Shown piece after piece: positions 51,473 to 54,785 of a stretch of DNA of 64,000 bases. Source of the DNA: Dehalococcoidia bacterium (GTDB lineage Bacteria; Chloroflexota; Dehalococcoidia; Lucifugimonadales; UBA1127). Position 1 is the first letter of the stretch; each line of letters starts with the position of its first letter. Position numbers and translations under genes: made by a program. The stretch spans positions 1,065,951 to 1,129,950 of the forward strand of contig OZ252225.1 in the NCBI GenBank assembly GCA_965249315.1, written 5' to 3'. The notes below the pieces were generated by a model. That model saw only the letters and a program-made list of their open reading frames with translations, searched no databases and was not told the DNA's origin.

Positions 51473-51501
51473 TTGACGGAGAATCGGCGCGGGTATAGAA
51501 T
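51473..51501 (+). promoter_or_regulatory. Sigma-70-like promoter of the 23S rRNA transcription unit
   Basis: TTGACG (51473-51478), a 17-nt spacer, then TAGAAT (51496-51501), about 140 nt upstream of the mature 23S 5' end. Confidence 0.5.
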
Positions 51502-51640
51502 ATCCCTCTGCATCTATGAACATGCCGTGAACAGAGCAGCGCGGAACAACCCGGCGAGGCGGTCCGGGCTTCCGGGCCGCCTCGGTGCATTCTAGAGGCA
51601 GCGCACCTTAACAGGAGAAGAAGGAGCACTAGGTCCTGTA

Positions 51641-54640
51641 GTGGGCGAGGTACAAAGGGTCCACGGGGGATGCCTAGGTGCCAAGAGCCGAAGAAGGGCG
51701 CGGCCAGGCGGCGAAACGCCCGGGTGAGCGGTCTAGCGCGCGGAGCCCGGGGTGCCCGAATGGGGAAACCCGGCCCGTCGATGAGGCGGGTCACCTCTGG
51801 GAGTTTGGTCCCAGAGGGGGGAACCGGGGGAAGTGAAACATCTCAGTACCCCGAGGAAGAGGAAGCAACCGCGATGCCCTGAGTAGCGGCGAGCGAACGG
51901 GGCGGAGCTCAAACCCAGGAGACTGAGTGGACTGGGGTCCTATGCCTCCTGGGGGTTGTGGGGCGTGACCGGGGAGACCCCCAGGTCTCCCAAGAAAGTG
52001 CCACTCCTAGCTGAAGGCCTCTGGAAGGGGCCACCGAAGAGGGTGAGAGTCCCGTAGGCGAAAGGAGTGACCACATTCTGGACACGTACCCGAGTACCGC
52101 GGGACACGAGGAATCCTGCGGGAAGCCGGGGGGACCACCCCCCAAAGCTAAACACTCTTGGCGACCGATAGTGAACCAGTACCGTGAGGGAAAGGTGAAA
52201 AGTACCCCGAAAGGGGGGTGAAAAGACCTGAAACCGTGGGCCTACAGACGGTCAGAGCCTCGGCATAGCCGGGGTGATGGCGTGCCTATTGGAGAATGAT
52301 CCGGGGAGTTCGTGGGAGTGGCAAGGTTAAGGGACAGGAGTCCCGGAGCCGCAGGGAAACCGAGTCCGAATAGGGCGCAGAGTCACTCTCAGGAGACCCG
52401 AAGCCAGGCGACCTACCCCTGGCCAGGGTGAAGGTCCGTTAATCCGGACTGAAGGCCCGAACCCGTTGACGGGGCAAAGTCATGGGATGAGCTGGGGGTA
52501 GCGGTGAAATGCCAATCGAGCTTGGTAATAGCTGGTTCTCCCCGAAATGCCTTTAGGGGCAGCCCCAGGGGCCCCCTGAGGGAGGTAAGGAAATTGGATG
52601 GGTGTGGGGGCGCGAGCTTACCAATCCCAACCAAACCCAGAATGCCCTCAGGCATGCCCTGGGAGTGAGACGGTGGGGGAGAAGCTTCATCGTCGAGAGG
52701 GAAACAGCCCAGACCGCCAGCTAAGGCCCCCAAGTGCAGACTGAGTGGGAAAGGATGTGGGGATCCCCAGACAGCCGGGAGGTTGGCTTAGAAGCAGCCA
52801 TTCCTCTAGGGAGTGCGTAACAGCTCACCGGTCGAGGGTTCCTGCGCCGAAGATGTAACGGGGCTAAGTCTGCCGCCGAAGCTGCGGATTCGTCCCTTCG
52901 GGGACGAGTGGTAGGGGAGCGTCCCCTGTGCAGAGAAGGGGTCCGGGAACGGGCCGTGGAGCGCAGGGGAGTGAGAATCCCGGAATGAGTAGCGACAACC
53001 CCGGTGAAAACCCGGGGCGCCGAAAGCCCAAGGATTCCTACGGAACGGTAGACGGCGTAGGGTAAGTCGGGACCTAAGCCGTAGCCGCAAGGCGAAGGCG
53101 AAGGACAGCTGGTGAAGATTCCAGCACCGCCGACCTTTCGTTGAAACACGGGGGGACGGGGAAGGGGGGGCCGAGCATCCCCACTGGACATGGGGTGTCC
53201 TCCTCGGTAGGCGTGCCACCGGAGGCAAATCCACGGTGGCGTTAAGCTGAGGGAGGAGGGAATCCCCCGCTACGGCGGGGGAAATTCGGCTGTCCCCATA
53301 CCTCCAAGAAAAGCCTCGTTGGAGAATGGTAGGCGCCCGTACCGCAAACCGCCACAGGTGGGCAGGGGTAAGTACCCCAAGGCGAACGAGAGAACCCTCG
53401 CTAAGGAACTCGGCAAAGGAGCCCCGTAACTTTGGGAGAAGGGGCGCCCGTGGAGGTGAAGGCGCAAGCCGCCGGAGCGTCCGTGGGTCGCAGCGCAGCT
53501 CCTCTGGCGACTGTTTACCTAAAACCTAGGTCCCTGCCAAGGGGAAACCCGAGGTATAGGGACTGACGCCTGCCCAGTGCCGGAAGGTTAAGTGGAGAGG
53601 TTATCTTCTTCGGGAGAGAAGCTTTGAAACGAAGCCCCGGTGAACGGCGGCCGTAACTCTAACGGTCCTAAGGTAGCGAAGTCCCTTGTCGGGTAAGTTC
53701 CGACCCGCATGAATGGCGGAACGACTGGAGGACTGTCTCAGCGAGGGGCTCGGTGAAATTGCAGGACCTGTGCAGATGCGGGTGACCCGCGGCGGGACAA
53801 ATAGACCCCGTGGAGCTTTACTGCACCCTGGCACTGGACGGGGGTGCGTGATGTGTAGGATAGGTGGGAGGCTGAGAAGGAGGGGCGTCAGCTCCTCTGG
53901 AGCCATCGGTGAAATACCACTCTTCTCACACTTCTGCCCTAACCCGTCACCAAACGGGAACCATGCCAGGCGGGTAGTTTGACTGGGGCGGTCGCCTCCC
54001 AAAGAGTAACGGAGGCGTCCCAAGGTCCCCTCAGGACGGATGGAAATCGTCCGGTGAGTGCATTGGCAGAAGGGGGCTTGACTGTGAGGCCTACAAGCCG
54101 AGCAGGGGCGAAAGCCGGGCAAAGTGATCCTACGGCACCGTGTGGGCGGGCCGTGGCTTAACGGATAAAAGCTACCCCGGGGATAACAGGCTAATGCCGC
54201 CCAAGAGTTCCTATCGACGGCGGCGTTTGGCACCTCGATGTCGACTCATCCCATCCTGGGGCTGTAGACGGTCCCAAGGGTCGGGCTGTTCGCCCGTTAA
54301 AGGGGTACGTGAGTTGGGTTCAGAACGTCGTGAGACAGTTCGGTCTCTATCTGCCGCGGGCGCAGGAGGCTTGAGGGGAGCTCTCCCTAGTACGAGAGGA
54401 CCGGGAGGGACGGCCCTCTGGTGCACCGGTGGTCCCGCCAGGGGCGTAGCCGGGTAGCCAAGGCCGGTCGGGATAAGCGCTGAAGGCATCTAAGCGCGAA
54501 GCCCACCCCAAGACGAGGCCTCCCACAGCGTGAAAGCTGGTAAGGCCGCAGGAAGACCACCTGCTTGTGAGGGCGGAGGTGGAAGGCGGGTAACCGTCGG
54601 AGCTGACCGCTTCTCATCGGCCGAGGCCTCTCCCACTGCA
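51641..54640 (+). rRNA. rrl: 23S ribosomal RNA
   Basis: The 5' region reads ...ACAAAGGGTCCACGGGGGATGCCTAGGTGCCAAGAGCCGAAGAAGG. It has GGGGAAGTGAAACATCTCAGTACCC, the sarcin-ricin loop AGTACGAGAGGACCGG (about 54390), and the PTC region GGATAACAGGCTAATGCCGCCCAAGAGTTCCTATCGACGGCGGCGTTTGGCACCTCGATGTCG. The ends are set from the flanking processing stem and are accurate to about 10 nt. Confidence 0.93.
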
Positions 54641-54671
54641 GGACCTATGGCTCCTTCTTTCCTGACACCGA

Positions 54672-54746
54672 CGCGGGGTGGAGCAGCGGCAGCTCGTTGG
54701 GCTCATAACCCAAAGGTCGCAGGTTCGAGTCCTGCCCCCGCTACCA
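54672..54746 (+). tRNA. Initiator tRNA-fMet (anticodon CAT), CCA encoded
   Basis: The cloverleaf folds by hand. The acceptor is CGCGGGG/CCCCGCT with a C1:U72 mismatch. The anticodon stem ends in three G:C pairs (GGG-CTCATAA-CCC), the T-arm is GCAGG-TTCGAGT-CCTGC, and the 3' end is ACCA. Confidence 0.9.
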
Positions 54747-54755
54747 GAAACCAAT

Positions 54756-54785
54756 GAAGACACCCCCGAATGCGGGGGTGTCTTC
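54756..54785. terminator. Perfect hairpin terminator shared by the rRNA/tRNA unit and the convergent RraA-like gene
   Basis: GAAGACACCCCCG-AAT-GCGGGGGTGTCTTC, a 13-bp perfect stem. Confidence 0.7.

Follow-up and report, generated by a model that had tools for sequence, protein, structure and literature searches.

The 64,000-nucleotide (nt) stretch of the genome of an uncultured Dehalococcoidia bacterium analysed here (the window) contains a 23S ribosomal RNA (rRNA) gene that very probably forms a self-contained large-subunit (LSU) rRNA operon, which has its own promoter, carries the initiator tRNA gene (tRNA-fMet) behind the 23S gene, is separate from both 16S and 5S, and has been inherited in this form. 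The window corresponds to C1:1065951-1129950 of a genome that consists of one 2,279,006-bp contig of 65.9% G+C and resembles a metagenome-assembled genome (MAG) with a marker completeness of 92%. A covariance scan of the whole window returned three RNAs, namely an LSU rRNA, a tRNA and a cobalamin riboswitch, the first of which is a full-length bacterial 23S gene at 51643-54636 on the plus strand (RF02541, 2572.5 bits against a gathering cut-off of 50 bits, model positions 1-2925 of 2925). The original prediction, made from the letters of the window, held that neither 16S nor 5S accompanies this gene, and indeed neither model scores above its gathering threshold anywhere in the 64 kb, nor does the 23S gene adjoin a degenerate relic of either one, as a permissive scan (E ≤ 1) of 50500-58500 yields nothing further. 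A search of the whole genome extends this result, in that each rRNA gene is present as a single copy, all on the plus strand (5S at C1:36639-36753, 16S at 584634-586149 and 23S at 1117593-1120586), and the genes lie more than 530 kb apart. On this one contig, 531 kb separate the 16S end (586149) from the 23S start (1117593), where Brewer et al. call rRNA genes unlinked if 16S and 23S are more than 1.5 kb apart. The dispersal is moreover complete, since the sole 5S gene is also detached, at 1.08 Mb from the 23S gene and 548 kb from the 16S gene, and has a promoter-like site of its own. The customary spacer tRNAs are scattered too, with tRNA-Ile(GAT) at 388 kb and tRNA-Ala(TGC) at 604 kb. Cumulative GC skew, inspected as to whether the three rRNA genes lie on the leading strand, shows no clear V shape, and no claim on the strand is made.

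The features of the unit, followed by its two neighbours, are listed below in window coordinates.

51473..51501, plus strand: sigma-70-type promoter-like site TTGACG-17-TAGAAT, 10/12 consensus positions
51555..51584, plus strand: leader GC hairpin of 13 perfect bp, boxB-like by position, fold -31.7 kcal/mol
51603..51614, plus strand: boxA-like 12-mer GCACCTTAACAG, between the 13-bp hairpin and the processing helix
51612..51662, plus strand: 5′ strand of the processing helix, a presumed RNase III substrate, in duplex with the 3′ strand
51643..54636, plus strand: 23S rRNA gene (RF02541), sole genomic copy
54619..54664, plus strand: 3′ strand of the processing helix, ending 7 nt ahead of the tRNA
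54672..54746, plus strand: initiator tRNA-Met (CAU) with encoded CCA, Rfam 63.2 bits (match 54672-54743) and ARAGORN
54756..54785, no strand assigned: perfect 13-bp GC-rich hairpin between the tRNA and the RraA-like gene, fold -28.5 kcal/mol
50565..51365, plus strand: ABC-transporter ATPase gene, upstream neighbour (open reading frame list; Pfam ABC_tran, E = 1.3e-35)
54815..55513, minus strand: RraA-like/aldolase gene, convergent downstream neighbour (Pfam RraA-like, E = 1e-30)

The interval between the end of the ABC ATPase reading frame at 51365 and the start of the 23S gene measures 277 nt (about 275 nt had been predicted), and no 16S gene is present in this upstream neighbour. The promoter proposed at 51473-51501 matches 10 of the 12 consensus positions and is promoter-like by sequence; such sites occur twice in 3.8 kb, compared with a mean of 0.4 in shuffled sequence, and the site at 51473 is the only one on the plus strand in 51200-55000. 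Transcription is thus predicted to begin near 51508. The predicted 13-bp leader hairpin is likewise borne out by folding, and by position it occupies the place that boxB takes in a classical boxB-boxA antitermination leader. It is followed by the 12-mer GCACCTTAACAG, which has only two exact matches on both strands of the 2.28-Mb genome, one in the 23S leader and the other 67 nt before the 16S gene. This 12-mer agrees at 9/12 positions with the E. coli rrn boxA, a likeness that serves as a lead and not as a test. The sequences that flank the mature 23S are complementary, with a leader-trailer duplex of -78 to -80 kcal/mol as opposed to a mean of -42.5 kcal/mol for shuffled partners. A long helix of this kind, built from the flanks of the mature rRNA, is the hallmark of RNase III-type pre-rRNA, and cleavage is predicted from it. 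As the genome encodes NusB, RNase III, the RNase P RNA and an Fmt C-terminal domain, the machinery for the steps proposed below is available.

Only one tRNA is detected by ARAGORN in the 64 kb, a tRNA-Met(CAT) at 54672-54746, in agreement with the predicted absence of spacer tRNAs upstream of the 23S gene and with the predicted tRNA-fMet close behind it. The spacer between the two genes is 35 nt (about 30 nt had been proposed), of which 28 nt are part of the helix strand. The tRNA exhibits a C1/U72 mismatch, an A11:U24 pair and G29-31:C39-41, its anticodon arm reads TTGGG-CTCATAA-CCCAA and its D stem GAGC/GCTC, and position 1 is unpaired in the fold. The other two CAT tRNAs of the genome have a G1:C72 pair and ordinary anticodon stems lacking both GGG/CCC and A11:U24. 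As initiator traits are confined to one of the three, the 23S unit holds the only initiator tRNA gene of the genome. Judged by these traits, the tRNA-Met behind the 23S gene is the initiator, with formylation and use in initiation as predicted properties. The initiator tRNA of E. coli carries C1/A72, and the tRNA-fMet of relatives of the window genome carries U72 or C72. In one genome (G003, L015:4551-4625), the tRNA-fMet behind the 23S gene has a G in place of the near-universal U33, together with other changes, and may be a decaying copy or reflect a sequencing error.

The hairpin at 54756-54785 had been described as a perfect 13-bp terminator. Its 13 pairs are indeed perfect, but its T-rich tail lies on the opposite strand and faces the convergent RraA-like gene, the stop codon of which is 30 nt away (no 5S gene is found in this neighbour either). 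A terminator scan scores the hairpin as terminator-like on the minus strand only, with GC-rich sequence instead of a U-tract following it on the plus strand. It is thus not a canonical intrinsic terminator for the rRNA unit, and may possibly act as a bidirectional one. In relatives, terminators composed of a hairpin and a T run follow the tRNA. All coordinates of the original prediction are confirmed, and the unit looks functional.

The two remaining rRNA genes have a complete anatomy of their own. The 5S gene (G000:C1:36639-36753, locus L001:1501-1615) is a minimal promoter-gene-tail unit, in which the promoter TTGACG-18-TACCAT has a -10 element ending 13 nt before the 5S gene and a T-rich stretch comes right behind the terminal helix. 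About 70 nt past the 5S gene, a promoter with an 11/12 match (TTTACA-18-TATAAT) precedes a ribosomal protein S1-like gene, in which four S1 domains are found and which is followed by a conserved gene. This 5S-S1-next-gene synteny is kept in seven genomes from six families of the order, and the 5S genes of relatives have comparable promoters. The 16S unit has promoter-like sites and its own leader-trailer complementarity, and its copy of the 12-mer GCACCTTAACAG, at G000:C1:584567-584578, stands after a GC-rich hairpin-forming stretch and before the 16S processing helix; no tRNA is present within 1.5 kb of the 16S gene. Here the boxA-like element lies partly within the processing helix, because a part of this GCACCTTAACAG copy, together with its flank, can pair with the trailer of the 16S gene (GAGCACCTT with AAGGTGCTC).

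The arrangement at the window locus recurs in other sequences. Window positions 49654-56659, from the ABC gene through 23S and tRNA into the RraA-like gene, have a colinear counterpart of 91% identity in a genome from the same genus (G001). One contig of run X12 spans 51150-51690, that is from the ABC gene into the 23S gene, with 13 differences and one gap in 541 nt, and a second X12 contig spans 54455-54698, from the 23S gene into the tRNA; the differences indicate that the former is not a copy of this assembly. Among the 30 nearest genomes, none has a 16S gene beside the 23S gene. The 23S leaders of 12 relatives share a CTTGAC...TATAxT promoter at the same relative place as 51473-51501 and a common plan, in which about 100 nt separate the promoter from a GC hairpin that in most cases has a T run, with GCAC-N-TTAACA(A/G) coming next and the helix strand last. 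In 11 of the 12, the processing helices reach -63 to -99 kcal/mol although their sequences differ, which indicates compensatory change. The junction between 23S and tRNA was surveyed by BLAST, with queries taken from the 3′ end of 23S, from the tRNA and from 5S, a method that is less sensitive for 5S, so that the categories below with 5S ‘elsewhere’ could hide a few missed 5S copies. From the order, 100 genomes were drawn evenly, 74 of which have a detectable 23S 3′ end. In 69 of these 74 other genomes (93%), which represent more than 50 families, the 23S gene is followed on the same strand by tRNA-fMet at a distance of 35-320 nt. The five exceptions comprise a 23S-5S arrangement (G006), a genome with the genes on different contigs (G046), a break at a contig end (G079), a contig that continues for only 158 nt after the 23S gene (G021), and a mere fragment (G096). 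The 23S-tRNAfMet arrangement is the standard layout of the order and nothing peculiar to the window genome.

Within the class as a whole, layouts are more varied. Seventy-five genomes were drawn evenly, and among the 44 outside the order that contain a 23S 3′ end, layouts were read from coordinates. The order 23S-tRNAfMet-5S within about 0.5 kb was found in 10/44; 23S-tRNAfMet with 5S 1.5-5 kb further on in 2/44; 23S-tRNAfMet with 5S either on a different contig or at a distance above 70 kb, which is the layout of the window, in 17/44; and a tRNA about 475 nt downstream with no 5S hit in 1/44. The order 23S-5S-tRNAfMet, as in alphaproteobacteria, occurs in 2/44 (G187:C7:88446-89265 and G123:C246:1-695), and 23S-5S with the tRNA elsewhere in 9/44, including two small genomes of 1.5 Mb; three of the 44 gave no clear layout. 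Hence tRNA-fMet lies downstream of the 23S gene in about 32 of the 44, the fully dispersed layout accounts for about 40%, and with 23S-5S-tRNAfMet present in some members all permutations of the three genes exist within one class. A pattern scan of named public genomes yielded 46 23S-tRNAfMet loci, all labelled Dehalococcoidia or Chloroflexota except two, namely the unclassified bacterium HR24 and a Sphingomicrobium (L111), in which tRNA-fMet lies about 290 nt after the 23S gene, a distance that fits the alphaproteobacterial order 23S-5S-fMet.

Some of these arrangements suggest how the split may have arisen. Five named MAG loci (L101, L118, L122, L145 and L148; Dehalococcoidia/Chloroflexota) carry a composite block, 23S-tRNAfMet-5S-S1-next gene, and within the order of the window genome, one family has two genomes with 23S-tRNAfMet-5S. 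Because the composite unites both junctions that are found apart in the window genome, the simplest history is a single break between tRNA and 5S, and the split layout most likely arose in this manner from a 23S-tRNAfMet-5S-S1 block, which makes the composite a candidate for the ancestral state. In a 23S tree rooted with one outgroup, an alphaproteobacterial 23S of about 1 kb on a long branch, the two composite loci with enough sequence lie outside the two clades of split genomes. In a genus of the window's own family (g5, G005), the entire 23S unit, promoter and trailer included, is present twice, as 3,244-bp copies of 100% identity (L217:1775-5018, and L218 as reverse complement of 1850-5093). 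One copy precedes tRNA-fMet, and the other is inserted directly before the 5S-S1 locus, upstream of the apparent 5S -10 element. Another genus (g6, G006; L220/L234) keeps the 23S-5S-S1 copy only and has tRNA-fMet alone elsewhere. As both genera are nested within the split clade, their 23S-5S linkage looks secondary, and the pair looks like a re-linking of 23S and 5S by duplication.

From the gene identities, copy numbers, distances, conservation and leader-trailer complementarity, we propose the following course of events. Transcription would start near 51508 from the sigma-70-type promoter of the unit and proceed through a leader of about 135 nt that carries the GC hairpin and the boxA-like element, the latter of which probably recruits Nus factors that would make the polymerase resistant to termination. 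The 23S gene and then the initiator tRNA would be transcribed next, and the transcript would end at or beyond the hairpin at 54756-54785. Pairing of leader and trailer would generate a helix of about 45 bp, from which an RNase III cut would free the pre-23S, and RNase P would then free the 5′ end of the tRNA, 7 nt past the helix base. The 16S and 5S rRNAs would be supplied by their separate units, 531 kb and 1.08 Mb away. Co-transcription of 23S and tRNA-fMet is suggested by the sequence of the spacer, as 28 of its 35 nt are taken up by the helix, leaving no room for a separate tRNA promoter, and as no other plus-strand promoter-like site is present in 51200-55000.

Several points weigh against this reading or against parts of it. 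Contigs of X2, X15, X17 and X12 were aligned to the window, and those of the RNA-type runs cover segments of the mature 23S only, with none of the three RNA or presumed-RNA runs having a contig over the leader (51353-51654) or the spacer; as these runs are available as assembled contigs, from which starts and precursors are not readable, they lend support to neither side. The RNA-type 23S contigs also derive in part from relatives (95-99% identity). The putative boxA assignment leans on likeness to the E. coli motif together with conservation. The interval from the ABC gene to the promoter yielded no terminator, which makes read-through from upstream possible, and the 3′ end of the transcript is uncertain because the hairpin at 54756-54785 lacks a plus-strand U-tract. 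With regard to the history, the polarity (composite ancestral, split derived) hangs on one short and distant outgroup and is only suggestive, and the secondary 23S-5S joining in sister genera implies that joins occur as well as breaks. As to habitat, one run bears the label of a sponge metatranscriptome, but its 23S contigs show many differences from the window, and no conclusion was drawn.

The anatomy proposed above is also compatible with a neutral history, in which the arrangement is a frozen accident of no regulatory meaning and stoichiometry is set by similar promoters and by decay of excess rRNA; the two accounts differ only as to whether the coupling of 23S and initiator tRNA is under selection. 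To the neutral account we give somewhat less than an even chance. The class exhibits every permutation (23S-fMet-5S, 23S-5S-fMet, 23S-5S with fMet elsewhere, and all genes split), which indicates that no single gene order is required, and an association of unlinked rRNA genes with slow growth and low copy number has been reported (Brewer et al., 10.1101/705046). Against this, conservation of the 23S-tRNAfMet junction (93% of the order) far exceeds that of its flanks, beyond what drift alone would be expected to leave. The selective counterpart, that linking the 23S gene to the only initiator tRNA is a device for matching initiation capacity to 50S output, with 5S and 16S tuned separately and the modules reshuffled and even re-joined during evolution, may be entertained tentatively, as the less likely of the two. 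If true, one initiator tRNA would be made per 50S rRNA in slow-growing bacteria with a single rrn copy.

It is improbable that tRNA-fMet is merely adjacent to the 23S gene, with a promoter inside the 23S 3′ end that makes it independent of 23S transcription. Spacers of 200-320 nt in some relatives would leave room for a promoter, and the solitary tRNA-fMet of genus g6 shows that it can work as a separate gene, but at the window locus the helix claims most of a 35-nt spacer, 51473 is the sole plus-strand promoter-like site in the region, and the same-strand neighbourhood is kept in more than 50 families. Finally, an assembly artefact, in which a fragment of an rRNA operon was fused to unrelated DNA and the 16S and 5S genes are missing only in appearance, was named at the outset as one of the findings that would undo the prediction, and rRNA operons do often break or mis-join in metagenome assemblies such as this MAG-like genome of 92% completeness, but mis-assembly is excluded for practical purposes, as single-copy rRNA genes offer no repeat to mis-join, the 16S and 5S genes each have a complete promoter and leader anatomy, G001 is colinear, the X12 contigs span both junctions, and 69 of 74 genomes of the order share the 23S-tRNAfMet junction.

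Two observations concern other RNAs of the genome. The cobalamin riboswitch is a full-length aptamer at window positions 39241-39424 on the minus strand (RF00174, 107.9 bits). A tRNA-SeC (TCA) gene is located at G000:C1:715572-715666, and selenocysteine is thus probably used by the organism.

The 16S-23S-5S operon is credited in textbooks with keeping the rRNAs in stoichiometry. In the present case, three separate rRNA units serve a free-living lineage whose genome measures 2.3 Mb, apparently across a whole order. The lineage is a natural experiment on two questions, namely whether balanced ribosome assembly requires co-transcription and whether the supply of initiator tRNA is coupled to 50S synthesis. 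There are practical consequences as well, in that long-read rRNA-operon amplicons and binning by 16S-23S linkage fail for these abundant environmental bacteria, and annotation pipelines would be wrong to treat such contigs as chimeras. The more interesting aspects belong to the class as a whole, in which 23S, tRNA-fMet and 5S are permuted, 5S is paired with S1, and a secondary re-linking has apparently taken place by duplication.

Among known systems, the layout is a variant of the unlinked rRNA genes, one that is not spelled out in the literature searched. Unlinked 16S and 23S genes are widespread, and the clades described as unlinked include the Dehalococcoidia, alongside Deinococcus-Thermus, Planctomycetes and others (Brewer et al., 10.1101/705046; PMC7761764). 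With these clades the window genome shares the 16S-23S distance, promoters for the separate genes, and conservation within the clade. The surveys, however, score the 16S-23S distance only, and the text of Brewer et al. (10.1101/705046) never mentions 5S rRNA, whereas here the 5S gene is also detached, by 1.08 Mb, and the initiator tRNA stands in the 5S position. Surveys of that kind therefore miss that much of the Dehalococcoidia has a detached 5S gene as well, with the genome's only initiator tRNA in its place. In the literature searched, we found no prior account of the 23S-tRNAfMet unit, of a detached 5S gene or of the 5S-S1 pairing in Dehalococcoidia, although such an account may exist.

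In Leptospira and in the archaeon Thermoplasma, all three rRNA genes are dispersed. Genomes of the Candidate Phyla Radiation (CPR) show a separation of 23S and 5S that has been termed ‘very unusual in bacteria’ (PMC8172020). The three rRNA genes as separate units are a shared trait, but neither a conserved 23S-tRNA-fMet partnership nor a 5S-S1 pairing is described for CPR genomes, Leptospira or Thermoplasma.

The E. coli rrn operons combine boxB-boxA antitermination with RNase III helices, and the boxA upstream of 23S is part of the 16S-23S spacer, within a single long transcript. The same order of hairpin, boxA-like motif and helix strand is found here, together with genes for NusB and RNase III; the difference is that the boxA-like motif resides in the promoter-proximal leader of a separate 23S transcript.

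A parallel to the 23S-tRNA linkage is the alphaproteobacterial operon, which usually has the order 16S-Ile-Ala-23S-5S-fMet. There, too, the initiator tRNA is distal in the rRNA unit, and its supply is tied to rRNA synthesis. Rhizobia embed tRNA-fMet in their rrn operons, as in Sinorhizobium fredii NGR234 (PMC6381291), so that a coupling of tRNA-fMet to rRNA is not new in principle. The claim that the initiator tRNA is tied to 23S expression at this locus thus stands as regards adjacency, while the claim that this is unusual needs qualifying, as it has precedent in alphaproteobacteria (PMC6381291) and is the rule in the class. The alphaproteobacterial operon is, however, complete, often multi-copy, and places the tRNA after 5S, whereas at the window locus only 23S and tRNA-fMet are found together, so that the unit resembles that operon in its tRNA coupling and is not a member of the type. 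What is new is the form, in which 23S and fMet stand alone, in a single copy that holds the only initiator tRNA gene of the genome.

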